Assembly: GCA_003990765.1 (NCBI GenBank)
Contig: RBNJ01000133.1
Span: forward strand, 1-39,847
Length of the DNA: 39,847 bases
Direction of reading: 5' to 3'
Source of the DNA: Jimgerdemannia flammicorona
Taxonomy: Eukaryota
Below, one piece after another: positions 1 to 25,151 of the stretch. The translations under genes were made by a program, and so were the position numbers. Each line of letters starts with the position of its first letter. Within the stretch, counting starts at the first letter, position 1. The notes under the pieces were generated by a model. The model was given only the letters and a program-made list of their open reading frames with translations. It did not search any database and was not told the origin of the DNA.

Positions 1-32
1 GAACCAACACATACGACAAGGCAAGAAGAACC

Positions 33-1651: not shown

Positions 1652-2404
1652 ATGTTCCAAGACATCAGAAGAGCTATGGAAACCCGCTCAAGAAGGACTC
1701 CTAGTGTCAACCTGGGTACTGCAGACCCCTATCACTTCATCCTCTACCGCCGTGAAATGGAAACAAGGATCACCATTGTCACCGAATACCTCCAAATATG
1801 GCAGGAGTATGAAATAGGAAACCTCCTCTGCCGGGAGTTCCCACAGGCCAGCACCCAAGAGCTACAAGATGCTACTCCCATGGATATACGTGAAACGAGG
1901 ACAGCTAAGAAGATCCATCAGATCTTCAGGCATGCACCATAGTCAATTCCCAACTTGGAGTATGTTAGAGTCTCAGATTTCAGAGACCTGTCATCTCGCC
2001 GCATCAATGCACTAGAAGCCAGGGTGGCTACAGAAGCCCAGTCCACTATCACCCTCAACAGTGAAGAAGTAGAAGACTTCTGGCACCCCATCCTTCAGGA
2101 CAACCCAGACCAATTCCTGCAAGGATTGATCTCAATATTCCAAGGCCCAAGCATCCAAGTTAGATCCCCCCAAGACCCCACATTTGTCTCCTATTTTGTG
2201 GAAGAGAACCTCATAGATTGGAGAGCTCCAAATCTTGTCCCCGATTTCCCCGCCGAATGTGATGACGTCATCGGCAATGACGTCATCCCGCGCAACATAC
2301 CCGAGGTACACGAGACGCACGACCTGCACGACAAATTCGCAGACCTCATCTCCTTCAGTGATGATGATGATGAAGCCCCCATGGTCCTGAACTTTCTGCT
2401 CTAA
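1652..2404 (+). pseudogene. LTR-embedded accessory ORF (about 250 aa, one premature stop), unknown function
   Basis: ORFs 1652-1942 and 1955-2404 share a frame. The TAG at 1940 is TGG in the C copy. Acidic C-terminus. Confidence 0.8.
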
Positions 2405-2410
2405 GTTCTT

Positions 2411-2575
2411 TGTTATACTGGATAATGCCAGCACCAGTATTCTCATGTAACACCAGATAATACCAGCACTGGTATTCTGAGGTGACGCGAAATTGTTCCA
2501 GCACCGGCATTTTGATGTAACACTGGATAATGCCAGCATCCTGAACCTGTACAACCAACAATACCAGCCCTGGAA
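2411..2575. repeat. Degenerate tandem repeat of about 34 bp (4-5 units) in U3 of LTR A
   Basis: Recurring TGTAACACYRGATAATRCCAGCACYRGYATT; internal palindrome AATACCAG-CA-CTGGTATT at 2459-2476. Confidence 0.8.
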
Positions 2576-2643
2576 CTTAGTAGTTTTAGTTATTGGAATT
2601 TATATTTAGCTCTATATCTTAGCAACCATTGAATTATATTTTG

Positions 2644-2676
2644 TATAAATACCCCTCTTATTTCCTCTAAAATAAA
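2644..2676 (+). promoter_or_regulatory. LTR TATA box and poly(A) signal
   Basis: TATAAATA 2644-2651 and AATAAA 2671-2676; same arrangement from 13687 in LTR C. Confidence 0.65.
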
Positions 2677-2881
2677 GTCAGTCAAGTTCAGTGCAATACA
2701 CAATCCCTTGCAAGCAATCTAAGAGATAACAAGACAGTTAAAGATAAGAAGTTTGAGGACTATAAGACCTTGAGAAGGCACTCCAATAAGAACTTGCTTA
2801 TAACAAACTTGAGTTAGTCTAAGAGATACACCTTGAAGAGAATCTGGCGTATTTGAAGGACTCAGCGACCACTACGTGACA

Positions 2882-4158
2882 CTATGTAGGACCTGAACAC
2901 CTGTGCTAGATCTGCATACCTGTACCAAACCAGTATACTTGCCATAAGTAGCAAATCTATAATTAGCCACATAGCAACCAGATAGCAACTACAATGTATA
3001 AAATACCCCAGAGACAAGAGTGAATAAATCTCAGTTCTGAAATATAAAGCAAAAGATAAGTCTGCCTACTATACTTTGAGAGATATACCTGCCAAAGCCA
3101 CTTGATCCAGGAAGGATTGCAATACTTAGGAGAAACACCTGCTCTATAGCTACTACTAGGAGATTGTGAGCTTTGCCCCTTTCCCACTCTGGTCTACTTT
3201 CCAATATAAAGATTGATTGATACACTTGCCAGACTAAGCCTGAAGAATCTGAGTTTGCCACCAAGTTCAAAAAAGAACTTTACTGCCTTTTGAGAAATCT
3301 GCTGCTTAAGGAATAAGTCACTATATCTTAATTCACTTGCTAGGTAAGCCTGAAGAAATCCACCACCTTTTGAGTTATTTACCACCTTTTGAAGAGAAAC
3401 CTACATTCTCAGAGAGCCTTAAGAAAACTTACCATAAGCCAGTCTTCTGATACAACTTTGCAGTAAAGTCAGTCTATGATGTAACCCTATGCAAATGAAG
3501 CCAGTCTTTGATATAACTTGCCAAGAATCTGCCACCAGTTATTATTCCCAGAGAACTCCACCATTTCAGAAAAAATCTGTATCATCTGAATAATTAGTTT
3601 ATTCCCAGTGAGCTGATTCAGAAGAATCTATGTCATCTACTATTCCCAGAAGAGTCCACCACCAGTACAATTTCTAGTAAACCAAATTAAGTTATCTGCC
3701 AAATTACCAGACTACCCTACATAAGGAACTCATTCCACTATACAAGACCATTACCCAGAAATCACATAAGGAATCTGCCACACTATATAAGAGATCATTG
3801 TGCTATACAGAGATTGTCATGCAGAAATCAGAGATCATCACTCAAAAAGAAAAACAGCTAAATTGCCAGACTATTATGCATAAGGAGATCATTATGCTAT
3901 ATATGAAATTCTACCAATTCCCAGTTAACCCAAGAAGGAAACCCATTCATAAATTGCTACTATATCCAGAGAACAGTTCTGATTAGAAAATCAACATACA
4001 ATTAATTACTGTATTCTGAATTTGACTATTATACTACTAAATACCAACAAGGACCTCAGGAATATTAGAACATTTTGTTACTTTTGACAAAGTAACTGGG
4101 GGCTTAAGCCAAACTATACCAACCCTCAATTTGTCTCTATTGAGCCAGGTACATTACA
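2882..4158 (+). repeat. 5' LTR of B (first ~130 bp displaced by insertion of A)
   Basis: Homologous to 26078-27448 and 31615-33003; ends CATTACA before the PBS. Confidence 0.85.
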
Positions 4159-4160
4159 TT

Positions 4161-4178
4161 TGGGGGCTCAACTGAGAA
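4161..4178 (+). promoter_or_regulatory. Primer binding site, tRNA-Pro-like
   Basis: TGGGGGCTCAACTGAGA two bases after the LTR end resembles the tRNA-Pro PBS TGGGGGCTCGTCCGGGA; E copy TGGGGACTCAACTGGGA at 27451. Confidence 0.75.
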
Positions 4179-4710
4179 GATTTCAAAATTGATATGACTT
4201 TTTAGCTCACAAGAACCCACAGTCAAACTGGATACATTTGATATAATACCAATTTCTGCCATCACAGGAGAACCAGTTATTACTAGCATTTGGACAGGAA
4301 GAGAAGTAATCACCTCAAGACTTGTCAACTACCCAGTATCAGAAGGATCCCAGCCAGAAACCAGTACAGCCTGAAATCCTCAACTAGAGCAACTAGACAA
4401 CACAGGTGGCCCTGCTGGAGATCTTAAAGAACTTGTACAAGAACTAGAAGATCTCATTACATAAGCCCAAGATCTTACAGCCAGACACCCCATACCAGTC
4501 CCACCAATCTCACCCATTGAACCTTTACCACTAGTCCTTGCAAAATTAGAAGTAGCTCCTACAAGAATACTTAGGCTCATTCCACATCATCCAAGGTCCA
4601 GAACATCATCCTCAAGATATCCAAGCACTCCTATCTCCAGTGACAGTTCAGAAAGTGAATCTGAATCAGAATCTGGACCAGAACCAGAATTAGAAGAAAG
4701 TGACAATGAA

Positions 4711-7704
4711 ATGGCCACCTTATTACCAACCTTTGCAGGATATCCAGAGAAAGATCCCAGAGAATTTCTTGATAGAATTGAAGGAATTGCAGCCCTGAGA
4801 GATCTCTCAGATAAAAGAAAAATCACCATCTATAAGGCCCTGCTTAGAGAACCAGCCAGAGGAATTTTTCACTGAAAGGTAAATGATCTGAATTCAGAAT
4901 TGGCAAGACAAATACAAGCAGCAGTATCTTATGAGCTGGAATATGTAGCTATAGTCCACTGGCTTATCAGAAAATATGCAGAAAATGAAACCCACTATAA
5001 GGCTCAAGAATCTATCATAGAGATGAAGATGAATCTTAGAGAATTATCCAGAGCCTTCTTCACAAGAATCCAAAAGAGAATGTATGCTACTGGGTTCAAT
5101 ACCACCAACCAGAATATTATAGGTCTAATGATCTTCATAAATGGGATTCCCCCAAACATTGCTCAGTATATCTGTACCCTAGACATCAGCAGGTCCAAAG
5201 AGCAAGTAGATGCAGCCCAAGGATTCTTTAATGTCAGACAAGAAACCACCTGAAGTGATTATAATAAGAAAGAAGACAAAGAAGACATCCTGGTCAAAGC
5301 CCTACAAGAACTCCTTCAAGGACAAGAGAGATCTAAAGAAAGAAGATCAGCCAAAGAAGAAAAGAAGGACAGGAGCAAAATCCAAGACCTTAGCTCCAAG
5401 TTGGACCAATTGGTTGGATAGATTGAAAAACTCACCATATATAAAAATCGGAGTTACCAAGACAACAGAGGATACCCACCACAGAGAAGCCAAGGTTATC
5501 CACCCAGAGATAACAGGAGCTATCAGTAGGAAGAAAGAAGGTACCCTGTCCAAGACAGAACCCAAGTCCAATACTTCTACTGTGAACAATTCAGACACTA
5601 TACCACTGAATGTGATAATAAAAGAAGTGACCAAAGAGACTCAGAACAACCAAACCAAAGGAATGACACTTAGTATAAGAAGACTGAAGCCCATCCTGTC
5701 AAAGACTTTGTAGAAGTAAGCAACAGTGAAGACTACAGTGACCTAAACCTGTATCCTACCAAGGTTACTACCTGGAAAACAGTCTATCTAGTAGAAAAAA
5801 GAAAGAGACCCATAGGAAGGCCATCCAGGAATATTAGCAGAAGAATTATCTAAGAAGAAGATAAAGAACATGAAGAGAAACAAGTAGAAACACCTCCCCA
5901 GACTCCTTCACCTTTTGTCCCCAAGATAAATGAGTTGTCACCAGCTGGAGTCCAAAACAAATTACTGAGGACCACCAGATCTAGCACTGGCTGAGTTCCA
6001 ATCCCACAGCAAGAGCCAGCTCCCATACCTATCTAGGCTGCAGAGAGATATGTCAGCACCTACTTACATAGAGACATTGGAGGACAAAAGGCAAAAATCC
6101 TCATAGACATAGGAGTAGCTGTCTGTATTATTGCTAAACAATTCCTGGACACCCTTCAATGGCCCATTGATGGACCATCCAACCTCAGCTTCATAGTGGC
6201 AGATGGAGCCCAAACTCAACCTCTTGGAGAAGTATGAAATATCACTATTTCTCTTAGACACATTCAGTTCTCCATTCTGAAAGCTATCATCAATGAAGCT
6301 GTCACCTATGACATGATCCTTGGTACCAACTGGAAGAAGGAAATGAATGCAGTTGTTGATATTGGACAACAAGTACTCAAGTTTGACTACTGAGACAATA
6401 AGTACCAAGTTAAGGTGACTAGCTATGAGCAATCAAAGAAGAAGAAGGCCATAATTTAGGAGGAATATACCAGCAGTGAAGAATTTACTATAGAAGAGGA
6501 AGATGAATCTGAAGATGGAAATGATCCCAGACTCAATCCCTGAATCAATCTAGTGAATGATAGACTAGAAGACAATATATGGACTAAGAATACTATCCTC
6601 ATTACCATTGGAGCCATTGCAGGAGAAATCAAAGGATGCCCCACTTGCCTCAAGAGACACAAGTACCCCAAGCACTCTTCCAAGATAGAAAATTACCTGG
6701 TACAGCCTGCCCAGAGTGCAAAAAGAAAATAAAGAAATGCAGACATATTTCAGAAATACCTGCAGCCGAAGCTACAGAGATACAAGCAATTTGGAGTCAA
6801 GAATTATCTGGGGAAGAAGAGGCACTTGACTAAGAAGTTTCTGAACAAGAAGTACCCAAAGAAGAAGTCCCTGAACTCATTCTCTGGGATGACCCTCACT
6901 GGATACCACCTGAAGATAATGACCCTTGGAATATAGAAGAAGGACCCAGTACAATCCCCATTATTCCCAAGAAAGAGACTCATTAAGAAAGGACTTTTAG
7001 GCTAGGAAGATGTCCACATCAAATGGTCTTCCACTCTTCCTGAGACTACTGCTATCAGTGCTATCTACTAGATCAATAGGAGAGATAGAGACCCCAGAGA
7101 CCAGAACTCTCAAATACAGTTGCACAGTCAACTATCTTTCAAGAAGTTACTACCAAGTTGCAAAGTCAATTCAGAGGACAAGGTCTCTTTACCTGAATAG
7201 AAGTATATTCCTTATCTACTCTTCTCCCAACTTATGATCAAGATGGGTACCAATTCCCAAGACAATAAGAAATCAATAACCAGGAACATCATTTCCAAGC
7301 AATGGGATATTATAATCATAAAAGATACCCAGACTGCTGAGACTACAGACATCAGAAGATTCACCTCAGTCATGATATTGCAATCCACACTTTGAAGAGA
7401 GGAGACAATAGAGGCCAGATTCGAAAAAGCCAGACCAAGAAACCAGAAAGAAGAATTCTCAAGATCTATGATTTAGGAGAAGACATCCTAGCTTTCATCA
7501 GACATGTGATCCACTAAGGATGGGTAGAGGATGCTACCAACTTCATGAAAGCCCTAGACCCTATAGGAAGAAGAGGAATCAACTATCTCCAAGATCCCTC
7601 TACTGGAGCCAGGTGGCCACACCTCAACCTCAGAGCCTGGAGGCTCTCTACTAGTAGAGCTTCAGCCCTAGGACAGTTCAAACTCAGTAAGGATATTGCC
7701 CAGT
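4711..7704 (+). pseudogene. B gag, zinc knuckle, aspartic protease and Cys/His-rich insert
   Basis: LPTFAGYPEKDPREF gag start; knuckle (C)FYCEQF(G)HY(A)TEC near 5572; LID(I)GVA near 6100; CPTCLKRHK and CPECKKK motifs; many stops. Confidence 0.85.
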
Positions 7705-8103
7705 ATGCCCTACTACATCCCAAGGCCAAACTTCTGACCAAAGTTTACCCAGAAGATATAGGATATGATCTTTATAGTCTGGAGGATGAATCCATCAAGC
7801 CTGGAAAAACATTCATGATCAGAATCAAACTAGCTATGCAGCTATCTCAAGGAGCTTACATCCAACTGACCTCAAGGTCTGGGCTTGCTAGACAAGAGAT
7901 AACCATAGAAGGAGGAACTATTGATCCAGGATATATAGGTGAAATCAAGGTCATCCTATACAACAGCAGTAAAGAATAGTACTAAATCATTAGAGGATAG
8001 AAGATTGCCCAAGCAGTCTTCATGAAGGCCAAGACCCCACAATTACAAGAAGCCTTCAAACTAACTGAAGGAATAAGACAAGCTGAAGGATTTGGAAGTT
8101 CAG
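7705..8103 (+). pseudogene. dUTPase domain of element B
   Basis: IGYDL, SRSGL, GGTIDPGYIGEIKV, KIAQ, RQAEGFGSS correspond to the five trimeric dUTPase motifs. Confidence 0.92.
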
Positions 8104-8559
8104 TTAAGAAGAAAGTATATCTTCTTCAAGTCAATCACCTCAAGAGGAATGCTCCCCAGCAAGTGTACTACCAATCAGTCAAACTGCATAAGAATCTCAT
8201 CCTGGAATCTGAAGAACAAACTACTTTCGAAATCTTTGCACCACCTGATCCCAGGAATCTTTTTTTTGAACCCAATGAAGATATCCCACACTTGGATATA
8301 GAAGGACATATATTTCCTGACAAGATGAACCCAGTGCACTCCTGAGCAACCAACCAAAGTTGAGAAACCATCATCTTGCCAAAAGGAATCATCATAGGAC
8401 ACCTGGTGCCTTTACTCAACTGAACTCATAGGGAAGTTTATGAACTAAACCTATCAGGAAACAGCAAAAGGTCCTAGAAGAAAGAAAAGGCCCCTCTGTG
8501 ATCCAGGAGACAGTAAAGCCTTCCACCAACATTGGAGAAGAATTGACATCCCAACAATA

Positions 8560-9925
8560 GCAACAACTAGTAGAACTCCTCAATAAATATCAAGATATCT
8601 TCACTACTGATTATGGCAACCTGCCATACAACCCATCATATCACCACAGTATAAATACAGAAAATGCAACATCTATCTGACAGAAACCCTATAGAATACT
8701 CTAATACTTAAAAATATTTGAAAAAGAGCACATTCAAGAACTCTTAGACAATGGAGTCATCCAACCTTCTACCAGTCCCTGGGCCAGTCCTATACTTATT
8801 GTACCAAAGAAAGAAGAATGAAGACTCTGTATAGATTACAGAAAACTCAATTCAGTCACTGAAAAGGATACCTATCCTTAGCCCAGAATTGATGATCTTT
8901 TGGATCAGTTATAAGACACCAGATACTTCAGCAGTATGGACCTTTTCACAGGATTTCATGAGATCCCCATGGACCTCAAGGACATTCAAAAGACAGCCTT
9001 CCTTGCTCTAGAAAAACTGTTTAAATACCTCTGAATTCTCTTTGGACTTTGCAATACACCCCCCACCTTTCAGAGGATGATGAATTCAGTCTATGCCCCC
9101 TTGATCCACTACTACTTGATTGTATATATGGATGATTCCAACATCTATTCAGCAAATTTTGAAGAACACTTATACTACCTAGAGGAATTCTTTAAGCTCA
9201 CCTGCAAGAACCATATGAGACTCAATGTAAAGAAATGCTACTTCAGGAAACAGAAACTTGAATTTCTTAGATTTATAGTTTCAAAAGAAGAAACCCATAC
9301 AGATCCAAAGAAAACTGAGAAGATCAACAATTGGCCAGTATCCAAGACCCCAAAGGAAACACTATCATTCCTGATGCTAGTATCCTACTACAGAAGATTT
9401 ATCAAGAACTTTACCCAAATTGCAGCCCCAATCCAAGTCCTTCTTAAGAAAGAAGTACCTTATAAATAGATGGAATCATAAGAGAAAGCCTTCAAAGAAC
9501 TCAAGAACTACATGACTACAGTACCAATCCTTGTACACCCCAATATACAGAAGCCATTCATCTTGTATACAGATACTTCCAAAGATGGCCTAGGAGCAGT
9601 TCTAGCTCAAGAAGGATCTGATCAATAATACTATATTATAGATTATACAAGCTGAGCTACCAATTAGCAGCAGATGAACTAAGGCAGCACCAAACTGGAA
9701 TGCCTTGAAGTTATATGAGCAGTCACCCTGTTAAAGCATTACCTCATTGAAGAAAGGTTCACCCTGACCACAGACCATACAGCTCTCAAATGGCTATTCA
9801 ATCATAAGAAATCTACTAGAATCCTAGCCTGATGGATCCTTATTCTTCAGGACTACAAAATCACCATCATCCACAAAGCAGGGAAAGCTTACAACAATAT
9901 TGATATACTTTCCTACCAGCCCTAA
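8560..9925 (+). pseudogene. Reverse transcriptase and RNase H of B
   Basis: SPWASPILIVPKK, CIDYRKLN, PFGLCN-like, VYMDDS, LYTDTSKDGLGAVL, TDHTALKWL. Confidence 0.92.
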
Positions 9926-10960
9926 TGAACTAGAAGAAGGGTGTCCCAAGGAACTACATCATAAAAGAAGCTCTCCAGATCATTAAGGCACAAGATCTTA
10001 TCCAAAAGAACATCAGAAAGCCCACCAAGGACAGGCAAATATAGAAGAGAAGTTGTGAACAATATACCAACATTGGCTCAACCTCAGAACACAAGTCCAG
10101 GACATACTCAAGAAATGTGACATCTGTCAGAAGTATCAAGGAAAGAAGAACTATCAAGCACTATTACAATCAATTATATCATCAGACAATATCTTTCAGA
10201 GATGGAGAGTAGACATAATTGGACCTCTACTAGTTATAATAAGAAGAAACAAGTACATTCTTATATTTGTAGAACATCTGACCAAATGGCCCAAGGCTTT
10301 CTCAATGGAAATTGCAGATACCTTAACTATTATAGGTCTTCTCTATAGACTCACACTCAGATATGGACCCCCAGAAGAACTTATCTCTAACTGAGGCACA
10401 GAATTCATTAACAATATAATTATAAGTTATGCCCAAATTCACAAGATCCACCTCAAACAGACTACATCATCTACCCTCAGACCAATGGTATTATAGAAAG
10501 AATGAACTAGACCATTAAGAAAGAACTTGCCCAAGTCAATCCTATTAATTGGGACCTTTGCTTACCTGAGATCCTATGGGAAATTTGGAACACCCCTGCT
10601 ATCTCTACTAAATAAAAGCCATTTAAAATGATATTTGCCAAGAAAACCAGAACTGCTGACCATGAGAATCTTGGAGACCTCCTCAAGAAGGCAGAATAGT
10701 TATGTAATCAGACCCAAGTTCAGATTACCAAAGTCCAAGAAAGACAAAAGAAGTACTATGACCAGAAATAGAAGGACCAGAAGATCAAAATTGGAGAGTA
10801 AGTACTAGTTTGGAGAAGTATGATTGAAACAAACTTCACTGCTAAATTGGAATCCAAATGGGAAGGATCTTATCTTGTGCATAATATCAGAGAAACCAGC
10901 ATCTATTTAAGAAGCATAGATGGATGAACCCTGAGGACACCAATATTCTCAAGATATACC
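9925..10960 (+). pseudogene. Integrase of B
   Basis: HQKAH..WLNL..CDICQK, VDIIGPL, VEHLTKWP, PQTNGIIERMN, KWEGSY. Confidence 0.88.
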
Positions 10961-10972
10961 TTTTTCTACATC

Positions 10973-11488
10973 ATGAATCAGAGAGTTGACAACTATCTTC
11001 AGACTCTTGTTCTCAGCTCATTTCAATCACTGCCAGTTCCCCTACCCCAATTCTAAGAAGTCATTGGGAATACTCTCCAGAAAATTCAGATTCATCAAGA
11101 GAATCTTATCCTAGCCAGATGATTGTAACAGATCTATCAACTTCAGGCCCACTATGTAATTGGAGAGCAATTGCAGAACCTCCCAGTCCCAGAACAAACA
11201 TATATCAGAAACACCACAGAACTATTAAGAATAGATGTCACTGCTGCAGACAGGCTCTACACTCTTTATAAACCTAACCCTGTAGCCTTATTATAAGTAT
11301 AATTCCCCTGGTGTGATGTATGAAGAATGAATCTGACCACCTACCTAAGCATCATCAATGCTGTTGAAATCCTATTTCCAGAAGAAGAAGAAGAACCCTT
11401 AGAATGGAGCAACTATGGTACAGACAACAAAGATGATGGAACATGTATTAGTGCAGAAAATGCTTACCCACACTGAGATGATGACTAA
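10973..11488 (+). pseudogene. 3' accessory ORF of B (172 codons), homologous to the LTR ORF of A/C
   Basis: Single frame from ATG to TAA with only transition-type internal stops; HYVIGEQL...AADRLYTLYKPNPVALL...CDV(R)RMN; acidic tail. Confidence 0.75.
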
Positions 11489-11528
11489 AGGATAGTCTGA
11501 GGACAGACCATCCTTTAGTGGGGGCTGA

Positions 11529-11675
11529 TGTGACAAACCAAAACATACCATCTGAATTATAACTTAGCCAGATAATGTGAACATATAGCATAGTAATCAG
11601 ACACAGCAACCATTGCTGTGGAAAACTGTATAAAAAACTACCAGATAAGGTATATCTGTACAGGACCTATATACC
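11529..11675 (+). repeat. Truncated 3' LTR of B
   Basis: TGTGACAAACCAAAACATACC matches the starts of the E LTRs; ends at a poly-T tract. Confidence 0.85.
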
Positions 11676-11790
11676 TTTTTTTTTTTTTTCTATACTCATT
11701 TATTCCAAACACAGTTACATATCAAAACAGTTAAGTCATTATCAATAGTAATATAGATCACCTTGAGTATACTTACTCTTATTATTATTT
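11676..11790 (-). mobile_element. Probable 3' tail of a polyadenylated retroposed sequence (LINE-type); right boundary uncertain
   Basis: Minus strand reads AATAAA then about 9 nt then poly(A); interrupts the B LTR. Confidence 0.55.
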
Positions 11791-12354
11791 CTTGAGTGAA
11801 GAGTATTGTACAGATCATTTATCAATAGAAGGATAGAATAATTAAGTAGCTTACAGATTTATACTATAATATAGCTAATTAGTATATTTTTAAGAATATA
11901 GTTTCTAAGTATAAGATAAGGATTAATTTACTTAAAATAGATAGAAATTAGTGAAAATTATTAGTAAACTATATATTTTAGCAAACAGAATATCAAATTA
12001 TACTAATTTTTCAAATTATTTACATTATTTTTATATTATAACATCTGTATGAGGAATATATTAATTATTAAAATAATATGGATAAATTTGTTACAATATG
12101 TTCAGATATTAATACAAATAGATAAAGAATTATATAAAGTGTTAGAAAGATGATAGATAAATTAAAATAACATAACAATTATAATAAGTAAGTACAATTT
12201 AATGAGAATTAAATAAATATAAGATATATATATATATATATATTACGCTTATTAATATAATTTCAATTTATTTTATAATAGATACCAATAAATACTATAA
12301 TTAATATAGCTATCAATACATAGGTTCAATAAGATGATATCAAAGATTATATAG

Positions 12355-13971
12355 TGTAATAGTAATCTCAGAATGATGATATCATTATAGAAGATAGCCT
12401 TTTCTTATAAGCCACCAGATTAGAGTATAAGAAGATCATATGGCATGACTCACCCAAGCTATAAAATGAGTAACAATGACAAACTATAAGTCATGATAAC
12501 TACAAGATAGAAGATCTCAAGGAATATAAAAGAAGAACTAAGAAACTACAATAGCAGCAACTTAAATAAGACTCACAAAAATTCTGAAATAGTTCAAAAG
12601 ACTCACTATAAATAAAATATCTGCTGCTTATCAAACTGCAAGATCCAGAAACCACCAAGACTTCTCAGTCCAAGAAAGAATATTCTAAGATATCAGGAGA
12701 GTCATGAGGACCTATACCAGAAGGATTCCTAGTCTCAATCTGATACTGGTGACTCTTACCACTTTACTCTCTACTACTATGAAATGGAGACAAGGATTAC
12801 TACTCTTACCAAATATTTCTAGATATAATAAGAATATGAAATAGGAAATCTCCTCTATCAAGAATTCTCTCAGACCAGTCTCCAAGAGATATAAGATGAC
12901 ACTTCTATAGATATATACAAATTAAGAGTAGCTAAAAAGATCTATCAGATCTTCAGACATACATCTTGGTCAATTCTCAACTTAGAGTATACCAGAGTCT
13001 CAGACTTTAAGGAGTTATCAGTCTATTGTACAGACACACTAGAGGCTATGGTGGCCACAGAAGCCTAATCTATTATCACTCTCAAAAGTAATGAGATAGA
13101 AGAGTTCTGGAATCCCATCCTTTAAGACAATTCAGATCAATTCCTACAAGAATTGATCTTAGTATTCTAAGACCCCAGTATTCAGGTCAAACTCTCTTAA
13201 GATCCCACCTTTGTTCTCTACTTTGTGGAGAAAAATATCATAGATTAGAGAGCCCCCAATCTCCTTCCTACTGCTATTGAATATAATAACATCACTAGTA
13301 ATGATATCACTCTACTAATTGACATATGCAAAATATATGAAATAAATGAAATACTTACAGAAATTTTTACTGACCTTATTTCCTTCAAAGACATCCTGTT
13401 TCTGATCTCTAGTTTTGATGATAGTAATGAAGACAAAGCCTCCAGGATTTTGAACATTCTGCTCTAATTTATTTATATAACTATTTGTTTAAATACTTGA
13501 ATATTCTGATATTCTGACTTCATATAACTATCAGAAATTATTTTAACATTTTGATCTTATATAATCAATTATACAGGCACTTGAATTTATACCTATAATC
13601 TGAAGTTTTCTGTATTCAAATATCTTATTTGGTTATTGAATTTTATATTTAGCTTTGTATCTTAATAATTATTGAATTATATTTTGTATAAATACCCCTC
13701 TTAGTTCTTCAAAATAAAGTCAGTATTAAAACACTCAAGCATTTAAGTACTCAACTACTCAAGAGTATAAGAGTTCTAGTCCTCTACTCAATTCTATACA
13801 AGTAAATCAAGGAGTTAATAGAGCAGTTTAAAGATAAGAAGTTTGAAGACTATAAGACCTTGGGAAGGCACTCTAATAGAACTTGCTTATAAGAAGCATA
13901 TAGTTGGTCTAAGAGATATACCTTGAAGAGAATCTGATATACTTGGAGAACTTAATACTCTCCACATGATA
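12355..13971 (+). repeat. 5' LTR of C (about 1.6 kb)
   Basis: TGTAAT...CATGATA, colinear with 1348-2881, followed by ACTTGGTACCTATTGGCTGG (PBS; tRNA not assigned). Confidence 0.88.
12680..13467 (+). pseudogene. Decayed copy of the LTR-embedded accessory ORF
   Basis: EYEIGNLL, AKKIYQIFRHTSWSILNLEY, SDFKELS, EEFWNPIL and terminal LNILL* align to 1652-2404. Confidence 0.8.
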
Positions 13972-16170
13972 ACTTGGTACCTATTGGCTGGTGATACTAT
14001 TAGAATTTCTTACTTTCAAGCTGAATAATAAACAACTACCACAATAACTACCCTGACTATAAGAGTCACCCTCTATAAGAATTCAAAATAAGATAGAAAT
14101 ACATTCCTCTACATTTAATAGATTTACTACTGAAGAGTCAATCCTGACCTTTATTGAAGACTTTGAACAATTTGTCACTATACAAGCTCTCAATATTGAA
14201 GTATAATTGGCTCTCCTATCTGTCAACCTCAGAGGATCTACCAGAGACAAGTTCAATACAGTTACTATTACTGACAATAGTGCAGTCAAACTCACCAATA
14301 TAAAGAATATCTTCAGAACTATATACTATATTAAAGAGATCAAGCAAGCTCTCAAAGATCAACTTAACACTATCTACCAAGGACTCAATAAAGACCCCAA
14401 CTCATTCTATACTCAAATCTGTCACCAGATTGTCTTGGCTGACTATGATGATGCTCCCAAAGAACAGATAGCTGATTCAATCTTTCTAAAAGAAGTCTAC
14501 CTTGAAATCATCCTAGCAAACCAGTCTATCCCAGCTACTCTGACTCTTGACCAGAAAGTGGTCTTTGTATAGAGATATTAGATCATCAGATACTCTGCTA
14601 AATACTCAATAGAAAGGATAACTGGCATCAAGATAGAGTCACTAAAGCCAATCAGTATCATACCCACTATAGCTCTTAACAGACAACCATCTCTATCTAT
14701 CTCCAAGATAGCTAAAGCTGACCTAGTGGAGGAACTCATCCAGCAGTTTGTCAAGATGACTGCACACCTTGGTGTCATTGTTAGAGAAGTATAAAGTGCC
14801 AACAAGAGACTAGTATAGAGGTTTGCAGCTACTACAGAGGAATATACTATTATATACTTCAAATGTAGAGAAGAAGGCCACTATGTAAAGAATTGTATGA
14901 CCAAAACAAGATATAGAGCCCAACTAAGTAATGTTACCAAAACTAGAGAACAAACCAATACAGTAGTCATTGAGGAGATTGGTAATGCTGATGATGAAGA
15001 ATATTATGAGAAGTCTAAATTCTGTCCTGTTACTGAAGATACCAGAACCCAGTCTAAGCTCTATGACAAGAAGGACAATAGTAAGCTGATTAGAAGATCA
15101 AAAAAGATCCCAATCATCACTATTCAAAGTAAGACCCAACTTGAGAAGATTGATTAAGACATGGAGTTAGATGAAGCTACCCACCAAATTATTGAAAGTA
15201 TATACTACTCTAGTCTCAGGAGAAAGTAAAAGCAAGAAAGAACAGAAGCTGTATAAGATCAAGATCTACTAGTATGATATCTACAAAGATCTCAAGAAAT
15301 AGAAGGTCAATACTAATTTGGACAACTAGCAGAAGTCTCTGCCTTCAGATAGCAGTTAAAAGCAAGACTTACAACTACTTTCAAGAACCAAGAGTATAAG
15401 TTCATAAAAGCTCACAATATATAAGAAGATGAATAAGAAGACCAAGATAAAGAATCTGAAGATCAGTGCAAGACCTCAGCCAATATCTAATGTCAGATTG
15501 AAGATTGTATCTTTGATGCTATCATTGATACTGGTGCTAGAGAATATCTTATAAACAAGAAGACAATTGACTACCTAGGCTGGGATATTGAAGAATCTAT
15601 CAAAATAGTCTATATTATAGCAGATGGTACATGAGTTACCCTCCTAGACAAGATCAGAGGAGCTATCATTCTAGTAGATATGATCATTACAAGTGCTACC
15701 AACTATGATATTCTCATTAATAATTAATGGCTTCACAAGGTCAAGGCTATCATTGACCTCAATGTTCAGAAGATATAGATCAACTATAGAGGAAGAAAGA
15801 TATGGATCTCTATCAATGTCTACAAAGAAGTACTACCAGATATGGAGGAAAGAGATGAAGAGGATACAGAAGTCTTCATATACTTGGTGTACAAGAACAA
15901 GAGTAAGACAACCAAGCTCACAGATGAGCAGTAGTACAATAAGATCATTGATAGCTATGCCTCTCAAGGAAAATGCCCCCATAGTGCCAGGATATACTAC
16001 TCTGATATCTAAATGACTGCTGGTCCTATATCAGTGAAGTCAGAAAAATCCATCAACAAAGATATGAGCAAGAAGCAGCCAGGGCAGAAAAAGAAGCCAA
16101 AAAAGATGATTAGCCCCTAGAGCTTCAAGCTGATAGTAATGATGAGGAGGAACAAAAATCAGACATTACT

Positions 16171-16581
16171 CTCAAGGTTAAGAAGTTTTACCCCAAAGTC
16201 AAGATCTCAAAATACAAGACTAAAGAAGCTGTAGGAATGAATCTTGCCAGCATCCAAGATGCTATCCTTGAACCACAAACCACTACTCTACTTAGTACTA
16301 AAATTTGAGTCAAGTTATCAGAGAACTATACTGAAATTATCAAGACCAGGAGCAGTCTAGCTAAGAGTGAAATCTCAGTTAAAAAAGGAGTCATTAACTC
16401 TGATTATACTGGTGAGATCTTCCTTATAGTCAGGAATTACAACTCCACCACTCCATTTGAAGTTAAGAAGTATGACAGGATTGGCCAGATACTGATCCAC
16501 AAAGTCAAGAAGCCTAAGATCACTGAAGCCATTAAACTCATCAAGACTAAGAGAGAAGAACAAGGCTTTGGATCTATTGGA
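16171..16581 (+). pseudogene. dUTPase domain of element C
   Basis: AVGMNL, TRSSLA, GVINSDYTGEI, DRIGQ, REEQGFGSIG. Confidence 0.88.
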
Positions 16582-16690
16582 AGAGGAGCCTATACTGCTA
16601 CCAAGATTACCAAACTCAAGCATAAGAAAGACAAGGACCAGAACAAGTATACATAGACCATTAGAGAAAATATTCCCCTAAAAGAATAAC

Positions 16691-18640
16691 TTTTTTTTTT
16701 TAATTTTTTTATAGTTACTTGAACTCCTTTATTACAGAAACTATCTAATACAACAATGACTCCACCTGATAACTACTATAACTACAAATACAAAGAAGGG
16801 CCCATCAGCCCACACCTTCTTTCCACTGCACCCCCTTCTCACTAAGCACTAGGTGCTCCTGACTCCTCTGAACTATGTCTAGTACTTTCCTCATAGCCCC
16901 CAACTGGTGCCTCTTCCCCTGATACCACCACCCTTGCACTACTTCCAAAAGTAGCCCCTTCCACCACTCTACCAATTCACTAATTCCCATCCAAGGATCC
17001 CTCTTGAACACTCAATGCCAGTGTACTGCCATCAGGACCTAGATACCAATAATCCAACCCAGACCACCCCAAATGTCCCCAATCTTACCCACTAGTCGCT
17101 GCTTGACCACCTGACTAGTGGGGCCTCCTGCTCACTCACTCTCATCACCCCAATAGCTTTCTAATGTCTGCCAAAATCCCTCAACCCCTGGACATGCTGC
17201 CAAGACATGCTCTGGCATCTGCACCACACCCCCATCTAGCTCACAACACCACTCACATTCCCTTACACCTTCAGCCTCCATCCACCCTCTCCAGTACCCC
17301 AGCATGATATTCCTTCATAAGAATCTCCACCATATCACCCAAAACTTTGGAGGTACAACCTTAAGCAAGGAGGTCTCCCAACCCCAAATCTGATCCCACT
17401 CCCAATCTTCCCCAAACCCAGCCTTCTGCCAACTAACCAGCCACCTCTCAAGTGGACCTGTCCAGATCCATTCCATCACCCCAGACAGAGAATATTCTGC
17501 CAACTAGTGACCACTAATATGAATATCTCCAAGTCACCACAATTGCTGTTCCAGGTCCTCCTCTTTGCCCAGCTCTGGACCTGTGAGTTCCATTGCCAGC
17601 CAAGCTTCTACAATACTCTATCAGAACCCCCAGTAATGCAATCTGCTAACCCTTCCAACCTGAAGCAAGCCTCACATATCCTTCTGAACCTCACCATGTG
17701 GGCAAAACCTGACTTCCCAATTATCCATAGCCAGCTTGCCCCAACTATCCACTCCTAATTCTGTTAGTTAATAACTCCACTAGCCCTGAAGTACCTTCAG
17801 CTGCCTCCAAAAGTCCACCAGCCCCAAACTACCATTTATTGTCTACATCACTACTATCTTTTAACTAATCTGTGGCCTTCTTCCTTACCATAGCCATCCT
17901 TCCACCACCTTCTTTAGTTTCTGTACCACCCATCTAGGAAAGTCCAAATGGTACCCCAAATACTACAGCTTTGATAGCCAATACACATTCAATACTACAA
18001 TCCTCTCCACCAAAGAGAAGCCCCTCTCTGACCAGTCCACCAAAGTGCTCTCTCACTTCTGTATCATACTACATCACCACTCTTTTAGCAGCACTGTCCC
18101 ATATACCAAAAACCAGACACCCAAATATCAAACTGCCTCTCCAGTACTGACCAGTCATCCGAAATGGCCATGCTCTCCCAGACCAGCTCCAAGCTCTATA
18201 GTCTCACACTTGTCCCAATTCAGCTTTGCCCCTACCAGCCTCTCATATTGTCCTACCCCTTTCTGCAAGCTTTCCACATCTGCCATACAGCCTAACTCTA
18301 CCACCATATCATCAGTGAAGGCCCCCAGCTTCCAGATCATATCCCCCATCTTCAGTCCAGTAAGCCTCCCCTTCAGCCATACCAATAAAGGCTCCAAGGA
18401 TAAAATATAGAGCAGGGATAAAAGAGGATCCCTCTGTGGCATGCCTCTCCCCAATACAAACTCAGGGCCACTCCACCTATTTATTAGTACTATAGCCTGA
18501 TAGCCTCACACCAGGCCCATCAGTTTCTGAGCCTCCACCATACTGAATCCCACCTTCTGCAGAACTGCCTCCAAATAGTCCCACCACACTCTGTCATAAG
18601 CCTTTTCCTTATCTAGGAATACCATTCTCCCATCCACTTG
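16691..18640 (-). mobile_element. 5'-truncated L1-like LINE (RT C-terminal half, 3' UTR, poly(A))
   Basis: Minus strand FLDKEKAYDRVWW, GMPQRDPL, AFTDDM; homologous to 37930-39847; AATAAA and poly(A) at 16733-16691. Confidence 0.9.
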
Positions 18641-19048
18641 TCTATATAATTAATAAATATATTTAATAGTAAAAATAATAATAATTCTTATATATATAGT
18701 ATTCTCTTATTATAGTAATTCAATTAGTAATCAGTATATAAAAAAGAAATAAATTGATAATCTATTATTATCTATTAAAGTTAGTAGATATATATATGCA
18801 AAGTCTATATAAGTATAAGACCCAAGTAAGTAATAGTACTGAATCTATTTGAGTATTGACAAGTAATAATATAAAAGCTCTTAATATAATTTATTAAATA
18901 AAAGATACAATTAGAGCTAGATAATATGTAAATAGTTTTATTTATTTACTTAATATTAGTCAAAAATATATTATTATTAATATATTATAGTGTATTTATA
19001 TATTTATATTTCTTTATCTATTATATAAAGATAAAGTATTGCAGATAT

Positions 19049-19538
19049 TGTTATAGTTGATTTGAATTAGTAATATGAATCAGAGGAATTAGACATTTGA
19101 TTGTGGTATCTGAACCCAATTCTCAATATAGTATAATCTTATAAATAGTAGTCATTTCACAAATATTGAAGTTTTCATAAATGTTAAACTCTTCACAAAT
19201 ATTAAGAATTTATAGATGTTAAAGTTTTGATGATTATCAAAGATTTAACAGATGTCAAGGATTAAATATTTGTGAAAAGTAACTCATAATATAGTTATAA
19301 CTTAGCCACCTTATAGCTAGCAAACTTATATAAATAACTCAGTATCTTAGAGTAAATAAACCTCAGATTGAAATAGTTTAAAGTAAAGAGAAAGCAAAGG
19401 AACTAGTAAGTCTGTGGGCAGATACACTTCAAACTCACTCCTCTATACCCTGAGGACTCTGTGAAAGTCAGAACAAGTCAAGTTTTTAAGATACAAATAT
19501 CCATCATACTTCTGAGGTTAGGCATCTGCTATGTTATA
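19049..19538 (+). repeat. 5' LTR of D (490 bp)
   Basis: Direct repeat of 25193-25634; TGTTAT...GTTATA. Confidence 0.9.
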
Positions 19539-19619
19539 ACTTGGTGTCTATTGGCTGATAATTTAAGATGAATCTCTCACTTTTAAGCTAAACAATAAAT
19601 AATCACTACTATCTGAACA

Positions 19620-22600
19620 ACTATATAAATTTAATCAAGACATCCAGACAAGATAGATATAAGACCACCAGTATTCTATAGATATATCTCAGATAAATCA
19701 ATCATTACCTTTATTGATGATTTTGAGCAATATGCTACTGTAAGGACCCTGACAGAAATACAGCAAGTAGCCCTCCTGCTCTTCAGTCTCCAAGGACCAG
19801 CAAGAGCAGTATTAATAGCTGTAATATATGTGGAAATAATGACAATATAGTGCTAGCAGTACAGAAGACCTGGCTCTGAGCCACCTACTATATATATAGA
19901 TGAGATTAAGCAAGCTCTAAAGGATCAGCTCAATACAACTTACTAAGAAATAAGTGAGGATCTAAATACATTCTACACCAGAACCTGATATCAGATAATC
20001 CTTACAGATTATGCTGCTACTATTTAAGACCAAGTAGCCAAGACAACCTTTATAAAAGGAGTTTACTCAGAGATAGCCCTAGCTATCTGCTCATTATCAA
20101 TAGTCCTAGATTTATCACAAAAAGTCACCTATGCCCAGTAATACTAGATAGTTAGACATCTACAAGACAATATAATGGAAAGAGTTACCAGAGTTAGAAT
20201 TGAAGCATCCAAGATAACTAGTGTGATCTCTACCACAGTGATCAATTGAAATACACCTCAGTCAAGAGCTACTGAGCAGTAGAGGAATAGTGACTCCATA
20301 GAGGAACTTGTCAAGAAGTTTGCCAAAATGATAGCCCACCTAGGAGATATAGTAATGGAAATTAGAGAAAGAGATCACTGCTCAGTTCAGAAGTCTGCTA
20401 ATACTACAGACAAGAAGAGAGATATCTGCTACACTTGTGGAGAAGAAGACTACTACTTATATAAATATATGAGTGAAACTAAGCACAAGGTCCAGCCAAG
20501 CAATGTTACTCAAAATAAGGAATAGGTCAATACCATTATCTTCAAAGAGATTGGAGAATCAGATAAAAAAGAATAAAAAGCCTACTCTGCCAAGACTATC
20601 AAGAAAGATGTCCACAAACAACCCTATAAGAGACCACCAGAGAGACCCAAGAAGAACTCTATGGAAAAGTAGATGGAGACTGCTATATAAAGTCAAGGTG
20701 AAGAAATGAATCAAGATATGGAGCTAGAACAAGCTGTTCAAGATATCATTCAAGGAACCACTCTAGTCAGTAAAAGAGAAAAGAAGAAAAAGCTTCACAA
20801 AACCAAGACCTTTAAGTATGATATCTTCAAGGACCTCAGTCAACAAAAGATCAATACAACCTTTGGCCAGCTAGCAGAAATACCCACATTCAGACAACAA
20901 ATGAGATATGGACTTGCTGAGACAACTAAGAAGCAAGATTAGAAGATAACTGAGACCAATAATATTCAAGAAGACTCAGAAGAAGAGAGCAAAGATAATC
21001 ACAAGACCTCTGCTTATATAATCTGTCAGATTGAAGATAGAATCTTCAAAGCCATTATTGATACAAGAGTAGAAAGATGTCTCCTCAGCAAGAAAGCAGT
21101 AGACCACCTAGGTTGGAAAGTTGAAGAAGCAACTAAATTGATATTTGTCACAGTAGACAGCATAAAAGCCACACTTCTAGGAAAGATCTGAGATGTTTCC
21201 ATCAAGTTTGGAGAAGCAACCATCCCAGTAGATGTGATTATGACCAATGCTATTAATGATGATATCCTCATCAGCAATCAGTGGCTTCACAAAGTCAAGA
21301 CAATAATTGATCTGAATGCTCAGAAGATACAAATCATATACTGAGGTCAGAAGATGTGAATTCCCATCAATATCAATAAAGAAGTACTGCCTAAAATAGT
21401 GGAAGAAGAAAGTGAGCAAGAAGAAGCCTATATGGTGACTACTAAGAAAAAGAAGAAGAAAATCAGATAGATTAGTGAAGAAGACTGGTGCAAGAAGATT
21501 GCAGAAGGATATACACCACAAGAAGTCTGTCTCTATGAAATCAAGATATACTGTAGTGAGCATATTAATGGCTGCTACCAATATAGCATTGGCATCAGAA
21601 AGATCTACCAGAAAAGAAGACAGAAGGTTCTTAAAAAACAGACAAGAGAAGAGGAGAAGAAGGAAGAGAATGATGAACCACTAGCCCTTCTGGAGGACAG
21701 TGATAATGAAGAAGAAATTAAGGTTAAGATTGGAGAATCCACCCTAATGTAGTTCTACCAGAATATAAGTCAGAAAATATAGCTAGAATGGATATTTATA
21801 GTAGAATAAACCATACTGGAGCCCCAGACAACCACCCTACTTGTAACTGGTCTGGAGATGATCATTCCAAAGAACCATATCAGAATCCTTAAGACAAGAA
21901 GCAGTCTGGCTAAAAGTGAAATCACAATTTAAGGAGAAGTCATTAATTTAGATTATATTGGAGAAATACTACTTATTACTAGGAACCACTATCCTATGAT
22001 TCTATTTCCAATCAAGAAGAAGAACTAACTGGCATAGATGTTGATCTTCTCAGTTCTTCAGCCAAGGATCATGGAAGTCAAAAAGTTAGAGGAAATAAAA
22101 AGAGGAAAGAAAGGATTCAGATCCATAAGAAGAGGAGTATTTGCTAGTACCAAGATTACTGAACTGGATTACAAGAAGGAGGAAACTATGAACAAGCATA
22201 GCTACACTATTGGAAATGAATTCCCACTTAAGAAGGAACTCAAGAAGATACTCTATGAATTTGAGAATGTCCTAGCCACAGATTTCAAGGATATCAAAGA
22301 AAAGACCCCACACTATCATGATATAGATATAGGAGACACTAACCAATCTACCAAAAAGCAAGACCAATACTGCCAGCCTGCTGCAAATGGCTCAGAGAAG
22401 AAATCATGCAGATAGAAGAAGCTAGTATATATCATTAAAGAAGCTAGCAGCCCCTGGGCTTCACTAGTTGTACTAGTTCTGAAAAAAGAAAGCAAGCTAA
22501 GAGAATTTGCCCCAAGACTCTGTACTAATTACAGAAAGCTCAACTTGGTTACTAAGAAAGATTACCAACCATTACCCCTCATCAGTGACATCCTTATAAC

Positions 22601-23625
22601 CTTGAGAGATAAAGTACAGTACTACAGCACCTTGGACTTATACTCAGAATTCTATCACTGAAGCAGTAAGTAAAAAGTCAGCTTTCATCACTCCAGATAG
22701 AACCTATGTCTACCTGTGAATACTATTTGGAATGTGCAATACACTAGTAAGCTTCCAGCAAATGATGAACAAAATCTTCTACTATGACATGGAAAGATAG
22801 ATGATAGTCTATATGGATGATGTAATCATCTACAGCAAGACATCTGAGGAATATCTGCACTATATCTAGTAGATAATAGAGAAGCTAAAACAGTATGGTC
22901 TTTACATTAAGCCCAAGAAGTGCAAGTTTGCAGAAATTGAGATCATCTATCTTGGTCATATCATCAATTGAGATAAAATATACACAGACTCCCTCAAGAT
23001 TCAAGCAGTAGCAGTATACCTAAGACCCACTATAGTTACTGAAGCCCAAGCCTTTATGGGACTTATCTCTTACTATCAAAGATTTATCAGAGGATTCTCC
23101 AATATAGCAAGCCCAATCTACAAACTCAACAAAAAGAATATTAAGTTTCAATAGACTGGCAGGTAACAAAAAACATTCAATAAGCTTAAGGTCAGACTGA
23201 CCCAGATATCCATCCTCAGAAGACCTAATTGGACTCAAGAATTCATCCTGCAGATAGATATAAGTACTGAAGAACTAGAAGCAGTTCTGGCCCAAAATAA
23301 AGATAAAATAGAATATGTCATTATATACCTAAGCTGAGAAACCAGAGAAGCTGAAAAAGAATATAAATTCTACAAGTTAGAATACCTGGCAGTCATCTGG
23401 GCTGTAGAGAAGTTCCACTACTATCTGGCAAGAAGACACTTCACCATTTAGACAGACCACTCAGCCCTTACTTAGCTACTGACCACCAGACAATCCAACG
23501 AAATCTATATCAGATAGATCATAAAGTTGTAAGCCTATGATGTAACCAACATATACTACTTAGAAAAAACTAATGTCAATGTAGATACCCTCTCATGGAC
23601 ACCCTGAAGGACCCCCAACTGGTAA
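19620..23625 (+). pseudogene. D gag-PR-dUTPase-RT-RNase H
   Basis: ICYTCGEE knuckle near 20424; AIIDTR near 21051; dUTPase about 21720-22131 (TRSSLA, GVINLDYIGEI, KKGFRS); SPWASLVV, VYMDDV near 22807; TDHSAL. Confidence 0.88.
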
Positions 23626-23632
23626 ACCAATT

Positions 23633-24700
23633 ATAAATAGGAAGCTCTACTATGGAATCATCACCTATCTGAGACAGTAAAATATGCTCTAATATCTGAA
23701 AGAATGGACATAAAGTGATGGAGAAATATTGAAAAAAAGAAAGCTACTAGTAATATCTGAATACAAAAAGGAAGAAGATATCAGATAATTCATCAAAACC
23801 TATAACAAATATCAAAAATAGAAACAAGACAAATGAAACTAAACCCTGGAATCAGTATACATAGAATCAGTACCCTTTGCTCATATAGTAATAAATGTAA
23901 TTAGCCCACTACCTCTGATATTGACCAGCAACTGATATATTATTATTATTGTAGATCTCTTTACAAAATAGATAGAGGCAGGATCCCTTAAAGAAGTCAA
24001 TGTATAGTAAATTGTCAATTTCTTCTATAAAGAAATCATCTGCTGATTCAAGATTCCAATGTAAGTAACTATAGACAAAGAAATAGAATTCATGAACCAG
24101 TTCTTTGAGGTTCTCTATAAGAAGTATAAGATTCAGCATATTCAGACCACAGCCTATCACTCTCAAAGAAATGGACAAGCAGAAAGGACCAATAAGACTC
24201 TTAAGAATATTATTGCCAAGATCTGTGATAACTATAAAAATTGAGACCATTATCTATTAATAGCATTATCTACTCTCTGGAATATTTAATTATAAAGTAT
24301 CCATTTTACCCCTAGAGAAATGCTATTTGGAGAAGAAAGTTCTTAAGAAATCCTATCATCTATTAGAGATACCATATGGAAACACATGGACACAAAGATA
24401 CAGAGACTACACCAAATCAGATAAAAGGCTGAGAATTACATAAAAAAGGCATAGACACTATAATAGAATAATGCAGAGAAAATTTACAAGCCTGTAGAGA
24501 TTATCAAGATAGGAGATAAAGTCCTGGTATATCAGAATATAGTAGAAGCTTTATGGTTATAAAAACTGAAGCCTAAATGGGAAAAACCTTACCTTGTACA
24601 AGATATAAAAGAAACTACCTTTTGGCTACAAAAACTCTCAGATACAATCATCCCCACTACTATTCACTAAAACTGACTCAAGAAGTACTATAGCTAATCA
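23633..24700 (+). pseudogene. Integrase of D, homologous to A integrase
   Basis: IVDLFTK, TTAYHSQRNGQAERTNKTLKNI, KLKPKWE. Confidence 0.88.
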
Positions 24701-24749
24701 ACAAAGTACTACTTTAGCCCTCAATATTACCAGTACTATACAGTAAGCT

Positions 24750-25151
24750 ATAGAAAGACAATGGTGTTCCACTGAGCTACAAAGTATAGAGAAATCCTTT
24801 GACAGTATCCAGAGTATAGTTCAGATATACTTGTCATAAATTTTATACTTCAAGGCCTATCAGAACCAAACCAAGTATCAAGAATACTTCAAGTTAGGAT
24901 AGTTACTGAATATATAGTCAGAAATGAGAAAAGAAGACTGGATCAGAGAGTGCTACCTCTCTCATACTCAAATTACAATTACTAAATGAGTTAATAAGCT
25001 ATTTAAAGATGATGAGCCAGCCCTAGCCCATTTCTGAGGAGTAGTTTCAGGAGATTTTAGATATATCAAGAGATACTATTAAGAGAATATAATAATACAA
25101 ATTGTATAATACAAGGAGATACAAATTGTAGAAGCTTGGGAGTTTGAGTGA
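24750..25151 (+). pseudogene. 3' accessory ORF of D (134 codons), same family as the A/C and B accessory ORFs
   Basis: One frame from ATA (probably a former ATG): QEYFKLG*LL...TK*VNKLFKDDEPALAHF*GVVSGDFRYIK...EAWEFE*. Confidence 0.7.

Follow-up and report, generated by a model that had tools for sequence, protein, structure and literature searches.

A gene within the long terminal repeat of a fungal Ty3/Gypsy lineage

The stretch analysed here (hereafter the window) comprises 39,847 nucleotides of the fungus Jimgerdemannia flammicorona (GenBank assembly GCA_003990765.1, contig RBNJ01000133.1, positions 1 to 39,847 of the forward strand) and is a nest of fungal Ty3/Gypsy elements, on the + strand throughout, that have been mutated by repeat-induced point mutation (RIP). 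Self-comparison of the window and inspection of the junctions delimited the elements, which we term A to E (Table 1). Our subject is an open reading frame (ORF) in the 1.5-kb long terminal repeat (LTR) of the lineage formed by A and C, which is a real, conserved, sense protein gene of about 271 codons with no assigned family. A first-pass annotation, made from the letters of the window, had placed this ORF in a single accessory-gene family carried by three different Ty3/Gypsy families, with further decayed members at the 3′ ends of B and D. Its identification of the A/C ORF as a genuine accessory gene of a Ty3/Gypsy element, without an assigned family, is borne out by the relatives and the selective constraint described below; the proposed members in B and D fail tests of homology once the number of places searched is counted.

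Table 1. Features of the LTR gene, of the elements that carry it and of the neighbouring elements in the window.
Feature	Position	Strand	Remarks
pol 3′ end of element A (integrase zinc finger, core and C-terminal part)	3..1034	+	Pfam rve 1.5e-10, Integrase_H2C2 4.5e-09
Polypurine tract (PPT) of element A	1338..1347	+	immediately 5′ of the LTR start (TG); homologous PPT and LTR start in D at 25183-25193
3′ LTR of element A, 1534 bp, TG...CA	1348..2881	+	repeat of 12355-13971
TATA-like GAATATAAAAG, candidate promoter of the LTR gene	1500..1510	+	about 80 nt 5′ of the ORF start; invariant in A, C (12522) and the start of contig L001
LTR ORF in the unique 3′ (U3) region, copy A	1590..2404	+	ATG at 1590, 1-nt deletion after 1597, TAG 1940-1942, stop 2402-2404; hidden Markov model (HMM) match 1.2e-119
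Conserved TATA box (TGTATAAATACCCCTC) and AATAAA of the LTR	2642..2676	+	3′ of the ORF; TATA box at 2642, AATAAA at 2671; marks the U3/R border region
5′ LTR of element C (family of A, heavily RIP-mutated)	12355..13971	+	3′ neighbours: primer-binding site (PBS)-like ACTTGGTACC, then a gag-pol region related to D
LTR ORF, copy C, pseudogene	12617..13467	+	HMM match 3.7e-87 at 12784-13464
Proposed member in B	10973..11488	+	spacer between the B pol stop (10987-10989, another frame) and the B 3′ LTR (about 11500); no detectable family member
Proposed member in D	24750..25151	+	spacer between the D pol end (about 24750-24775, another frame) and the PPT (25183-25191) with the 3′ LTR (from 25193); no detectable family member
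Element D, sister of A/C	LTRs about 19049-19540 and 25193-25635 (0.49 kb)	+	integrase DNA identity to A
Element B	about 2890-12354	+	third family, with E; 1.37-kb LTRs
Element E	about 26050-33003	+	third family, with B; 1.37-kb LTRs

The borders of the A LTR are supported from outside the window, because the public contigs aligned to its 900-3000 part depart from it just before 1348 and, beyond 2881, run on into the PBS-like ACTTGGTGCCCATTGG, that is, the PBS side of a 5′ LTR. Parts of this LTR occur in 20 public sequencing runs, most of them labelled soil metagenome; RNA data sets are absent from the list. Since the conserved TATA box and AATAAA both follow the stop codon of the ORF, the ORF lies wholly in U3, and it is therefore copied with each LTR and located at the 3′ end of the genomic RNA. 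The 16-nt TATA block is invariant in A, in C (at 13685) and in the metagenome contig L001, within DNA that is otherwise poorly alignable.

Both copies of the gene in the window have suffered damage, and their limits required some revision. The motif strings quoted in the first-pass annotation exist at the positions given for them, and the reading of A over 1652-2404 is exactly as quoted, with one TAG; this extent holds for the sequence, and the true start is the ATG at 1590. The single-base deletion close to this ATG affects a position that is occupied in C and in contigs of all four sequencing runs aligned (as the majority state in only two of them), and restoring it yields an MPA... start as in the relatives P0002, L001 and P0009. 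The internal TAG of copy A stands where copy C and 6 of the 8 database relatives covering that column have tryptophan. For copy C, previously drawn as 12680-13467, the end stands, and the single-frame reading, which lacks the motif, gives way to a homologous frame that starts at 12617 and shifts once. Besides this frameshift, its start codon has changed from ATG to ATA and it has many in-frame stops attributable to RIP; the C LTR as a whole is 70% identical to that of A, the changes being mainly C>T and G>A. The same process is visible in the paired LTRs of the other elements: those of E (26078-27448/31615-33003) differ by 153 transitions against 2 transversions and those of D (about 19048-19539/25192-25635) by 52 against 3, with a bias towards CpA>TpA/TpG>TpA. 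Differences that are almost solely transitions with this dinucleotide preference constitute a RIP-like signature. Judged from this signature, the host would most likely be an ascomycete capable of RIP.

Relatives and purifying selection

The LTR-ORF family, as defined here, comprises A, C, the database proteins P0001-P0010 and L001. A word-based search of public metagenome protein sets recovered 7 relatives among 162 candidates, at 57-89% identity (the ORF of copy A being 89% identical to P0001), while an exhaustive profile search of 1,835,955,588 proteins recovered 5 cluster representatives with 30-90% identity to A. The relatives found in protein sets are all 138-342 residues long, none is fused to pol, and all derive from JGI or ENA assemblies in which annotation is absent or reads ‘hypothetical protein’. 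Several diverged relatives retain intact ORFs of 247-342 codons. A single scan of metagenomes returned L001 as its sole match, and a scan of IMG/VR with a broader family profile, A2, returned none. L001 holds, at positions 69-1037, an intact copy of 323 codons, arranged TATA-ORF-TATA as in A and C; both GAATATAAAAG and the 16-nt TATA block are identical to theirs, and the remaining non-coding DNA barely aligns.

Between A and L001 the ratio of nonsynonymous to synonymous divergence (dN/dS) is 0.21 over 248 codons and 0.14 over a 191-codon core, rather than near 1, and the proportion of synonymous differences (pS) is 0.67-0.70, which is near saturation. Synonymous sites have therefore been free to change while the amino acids were retained. 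Hence, the LTR ORF is under purifying selection, and the existence of family members down to 30% identity implies that it has been retained for a long time.

An orphan protein with a conserved core and an acidic tail

The family has a three-part architecture, in which an N-terminal stretch and a variable acidic tail flank a core whose length, in all but one of the 7 members having both borders, is exactly 142 residues. In A-like members the N-terminus is arginine-rich (9-13 arginines and lysines in the first 49-71 residues, net charge +4 to +7); in the subgroup of P0008, P0009 and P0020 its net charge is 0 to +1. The core contains both halves of the spaced motif noted by the first-pass annotation, together with a second conserved block, and the near-invariant residues of the family, H89, Q90, H94 and P96, lie in the second half of that motif. 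The tail spans 47-126 residues with a net charge of -15 to -27 and includes aromatic residues. Two short motifs recur in the tails, namely DL(I/V)xF, present in three copies in P0009, and P-x-(V/I/T)-L-N-F, close to the C-terminus of P0002, P0009, P0020 and L001; judged by their sequence, both look like docking motifs. Leucine-rich short motifs are also seen, with LNL following the basic stretch and LNF(L/I) near the C-terminus.

The earlier proposal of a soluble protein agrees with a simple Kyte-Doolittle scan, in which no transmembrane segment was found: the 19-residue maximum is 0.47-1.05 in 9 of 9 members, and with no window exceeding 1.05 the protein can be taken to be soluble. The transmembrane segment by which an env-like third ORF is recognised is accordingly absent from the family. 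The accompanying proposal of a helical protein stands with a qualification, as the predicted structure is largely helical, the core mostly so, in two models of low confidence (predicted local distance difference test, pLDDT, 45 and 60).

A match to an already characterised family was sought at several levels and none emerged. Pfam searches of 10 members at E<=10 gave just ATG5_HBR (2 members, best E 0.088) and NpmA (1 member, E 0.026), both of which we take as chance-level. The family profile matched no PDB sequence at E<=10, and Foldseek found no PDB structure at E<=0.001 (best E 2.9, template modelling (TM) score <0.33). The ESM Atlas offered nothing usable, the best value being 0.91 to an unnamed cluster and named clusters reaching at most 0.80; its own model of P0002 has a pLDDT of 0.35. 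The LTR-ORF family is thus an orphan with no Pfam, PDB or fold match.

A possible regulator of the element and the alternatives

We consider it likely, taking all parts together, that the A/C lineage carries a selected gene in its U3 and that the resemblances in B and D are due to chance; our best guess for the product is an element-encoded nuclear regulator. The gene lies between the PPT/LTR start and the TATA box of the element, is duplicated with the LTR, and forms part of the 3′ end of every full-length transcript. The conserved TATA-like box, some 80 nt 5′ of its ATG, may in addition serve as its promoter, and its product would regulate the expression of the element itself. The basic N-terminus, the helical core and the long acidic aromatic tail fit such a nuclear regulator. 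By analogy with Tas of foamy virus, as the first-pass annotation had suggested, a transactivator acting on the LTR through its acidic tail is a possible, if tentative, form of this role. Nothing observed here contradicts it, nor the anti-silencing protein that the annotation had raised alongside it. Slightly more tentative is the proposal that a trans-acting regulator, be it an activator or an RNA adaptor, is made from its own TATA-like promoter in the LTR, in which case every LTR, solo LTRs included, would be a small gene.

Certain observations weigh against this account. Its functional part draws on composition and position, both copies of the gene in the window are broken, and L001, the only relative with known DNA context, ends before any LTR end is reached. 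Further, the full-length structural model has a pLDDT of 45.3, and the core-only model a pLDDT of 59.7 with a predicted TM score (pTM) of 0.53. The probability that is left beyond a transactivator and an RNA adaptor belongs to a passenger gene or to some other role.

A passenger, that is, a captured fragment of a host gene or a de novo ORF without a role in the life cycle of the element, is in our estimate improbable. Long U3 regions can accumulate foreign DNA, the protein is an orphan without a recognisable domain, and the sister lineage D has replicated without the ORF, its LTR being just 0.49 kb long. However, no host-like homologue appeared among 1.84 billion representatives, the 5 matches all being similar short ORFs, and a passenger would not be expected to stay under purifying selection while synonymous sites come close to saturation between copies, to hold the place that the gene has in A, C and L001 with respect to two conserved TATA motifs, or to be kept for as long as a family that spans down to 30% identity implies.

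About as improbable is a product acting as an RNA-binding adaptor of the Rev/Rex/CERV kind, which would export or stabilise the unspliced genomic RNA. The Rex protein of human T-lymphotropic virus (HTLV) has an N-terminal arginine-rich motif, the N-terminus of the A-like members is arginine-rich too, and the LNL and LNF(L/I) motifs are of the leucine-rich sort. An extra protein of the nematode element Cer1 is needed for nuclear export of its genomic RNA (PMC10309623). Against this, the P0008/P0009/P0020 subgroup has a weakly basic N-terminus or none, and Pfam detects no RNA-binding domain. Moreover, we know of no splicing of the element, and long acidic aromatic tails are more typical of activation domains.

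A different kind of alternative concerns the distribution of the gene rather than its role: a single ancient accessory-gene family might survive, in decayed form, in A, B and D alike, being traceable in the latter two at the protein level only. For this, all six frames of the window were cut into 1986 overlapping pieces and scanned with the first family profile and the broader profile A2. Every strong match was to A or C. The best B piece reached 3.5 bits (E 4) with the first profile and 2.8 bits (E 7) with the broader one, where it ranked 7th among the non-A/C pieces; D with A2 reached 1.3 bits (E 19) and ranked 21st. A broader profile should help a true remote relative, yet B lost score and D stayed in the noise, which counts against the membership of either. 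Comparison of profiles points the same way, with hhalign giving probabilities of 0.36% for B and 2.6% for D against the family, and BLASTP yielded E values of 2.5 (B), 0.13 and 44, with no alignment in the register of the first-pass annotation. The absence of visible similarity at the DNA level, which that annotation had recorded, is real: transition-tolerant local alignment of the A ORF yields a z of 1.46 with the D spacer and of -0.7 with the B stretch, compared with 31.9 for a positive control consisting of the integrase ends of A and D. The ungapped 30-residue alignment of A and D is, of some 79,500 positions beyond the A/C LTRs, the one that matches the 30-mer best; however, of 300 shuffled 30-mer queries, 198 equal or beat its score (mean best score 26.3, against 25 observed). 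The claim of a motif shared beyond chance is therefore not upheld.

The residues and the location of these stretches tell likewise against homology. Among H89, Q90, H94 and P96, B keeps one of four in the hmmsearch alignment (the proline) and D none, and most of the replacements, by codon reading, are not transitions of the RIP type. Both stretches lie 5′ of the PPT and LTR start, not between the LTR start and the TATA box as does the gene in A, C and L001. In A, the close relative of D, the gene lies past the homologous PPT and LTR start, on the opposite side from the D stretch, and the LTR of D lacks the ORF. For B, the intact integrase relatives P0022 and P0023 end in ...KIYLHKP, matching frame 1 of B and its stop at 10987-10989, and the B stretch is therefore a spacer downstream of pol. 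The frame proposed for B is no more open than this frame 1, which has 93 stop-free codons; the latter stretch, at 10990-11268 directly after the pol stop, is Ser/Pro-rich, without a Pfam match and without a start codon near its beginning. An in-frame integrase tail was considered for the B stretch and rejected, as the frame changes just before the pol stop. Searches for relatives of the B spacer gave one weak integrase match among longer sequences (P0021, 46% of the query covered) and, in the near search, two integrase fragments, neither of which extends past the pol end. A scan of IMG/VR for P0022 found no match, and the exhaustive profile search contained no B-like or D-like member. Likewise, the acidic aromatic tail ascribed to all the copies is real and family-conserved in A, and the acidic runs of B and D are merely compositional.

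Several points nonetheless favour a common family. HMMER and hhalign both align B and D in the first-pass register, the B piece ranked best of the non-A/C pieces with the first profile, and for D the single-comparison P of hhalign is 0.018. Shuffled peptides reach the real profile score in 6 and 15 of 1000 trials for B and in 78 and 26 of 1000 for D (nominal frequencies of 0.006-0.078), which we discount because they fail once the number of frames and places searched is counted. Both stretches, moreover, follow pol within spacers that, at about 435-510 bp, are long if only a PPT must fit. An ancient and strongly diverged homologue in either spacer, and with it a family common to all three elements, hence keeps a small probability in our assessment. 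On the reading that we prefer, the B and D stretches are ordinary pol-PPT spacers and their motif resemblance is by chance.

Least credible is an open frame that is untranslated and kept open by a cis-acting constraint on the DNA of U3, which would accord with the broken state of both window copies but not with a dN/dS of 0.14-0.21 at a pS of about 0.7, with intact ORFs in several diverged relatives or with a core of fixed length.

Other features of the window

The integrase DNA of A is 68.5% identical to that of D (23936-24688) over 753 nt, and the PPT, LTR start and PBS-like sequence of D are visibly homologous to those of A/C. Neither the pol end of A, nor its LTR ORF, nor any of the three frames of the spacers of A, B and D matched the Pfam Chromo domain (PF00385) at E<=1.

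Element E is an internally deleted relative of B, from which the segment corresponding to 8038-11432 of B, about 3.4 kb of 3′ pol, is absent; the joints pair B 8038 with E 31514 and B 11432 with E 31519. The pol of this family includes a dUTPase domain (Pfam PF00692, E 2.8e-14, at 30868-31458 of E), to which about 7600-8000 of B corresponds, and dUTPase-like strings are visible by eye, rather than by a domain scan, in read-through translations of C and D. A dUTPase in fungal Gypsy elements has been described previously, according to a part of PMC2864245.

Beyond E, the interval 33001-34000 is very AT-rich (GC 0.175) and holds a 49-bp tandem repeat at 33394-33491. It separates E from the right end of the window (34001-39847), which is G-rich on the + strand (GC 0.50-0.55, GC skew +0.29 to +0.51) and from which six ORFs gave no Pfam match. 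A C-rich block within element C, at about 17000-18500, has a GC skew of -0.50, and a 66-bp inverted match is common to this block and the right end (18571-18636 versus 37986-37921). The two regions are possibly another repeat family present in both orientations.

Comparison with known accessory genes and implications

The nearest positional parallel to the LTR gene comes from vertebrates. The Sag protein of mouse mammary tumour virus (MMTV) is a membrane glycoprotein superantigen of a vertebrate retrovirus. Its gene is referred to as the ‘LTR ORF’ and placed in the 3′ LTR, for example in PMC2118998. As in the A/C lineage, a complete sense gene resides in U3, so that each LTR has a copy and the genomic RNA carries one at its 3′ end. 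In contrast, the fungal protein has no hydrophobic segment and no Pfam match, so that only the U3 position is common to the two, and no env gene is seen in the A/C element. A second parallel is Tas, the transactivator of foamy virus, a complex retrovirus with an internal promoter. It too is encoded by a 3′ accessory gene, and the fungal gene has a candidate separate TATA-like box and an acidic aromatic tail; there is no similarity in sequence or fold, and the resemblance is one of position and composition only.

Among fungi, the Boty-like (BcGypsy1) Ty3/Gypsy elements of the ascomycete Botrytis cinerea carry brtn, an additional gene of unknown function mentioned in a part of PMC8365987, which, by the title of Zhao et al. 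2011 as cited there, is antisense. Thus, brtn is likewise an extra ORF in a fungal Ty3/Gypsy element. Compared by description rather than by sequence, it differs from the LTR ORF, which is in sense, on the strand of pol, and inside the LTR. The extra ORFs of fungal chromoviruses and the extra or env-like ORFs of plant, nematode and rotifer LTR elements sit internally, between pol and the 3′ LTR, or upstream of gag. The former appear as an ‘add. ORF’ of unknown function in a figure legend of PMC2864245, and the latter in portions of PMC5408684 and PMC10309623. They have in common with the LTR ORF a coding capacity beyond gag-pol; the fungal ORF differs in lying within the LTR and matches none of them at the Pfam level. 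The use of ‘LTR ORF’ in PMC12037069 is irrelevant here, as it denotes polyprotein ORFs, and the consulted portion of a study of truffle Gypsy clades (PMC12581995) has nothing on extra ORFs. Across the open-access papers and preprints searched, LTR-embedded ORFs were found for MMTV only and for no fungal element. Hence, while accessory genes of LTR retroelements are already known, the gene family reported here is new and its position inside the LTR is unusual.

The stretches in B and D carry a lesson of their own for such searches: short spaced motifs read through stops in RIP-mutated DNA can look convincing and yet be at chance level. As for the A/C gene, LTR retrotransposons have few accessory genes, of which most are uncharacterised, and these are routinely masked with the repeats and so missed by annotation. 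A selected gene inside the LTR would be duplicated in each element and would remain in every solo LTR. If its product does regulate transcription or RNA handling, a fungal retrotransposon would possess a retrovirus-like layer of control, with copies of the regulator scattered over the genome. The A/C lineage would then represent, among fungi, a ‘complex’ LTR retrotransposon whose regulatory circuit bears comparison with those of the complex retroviruses.

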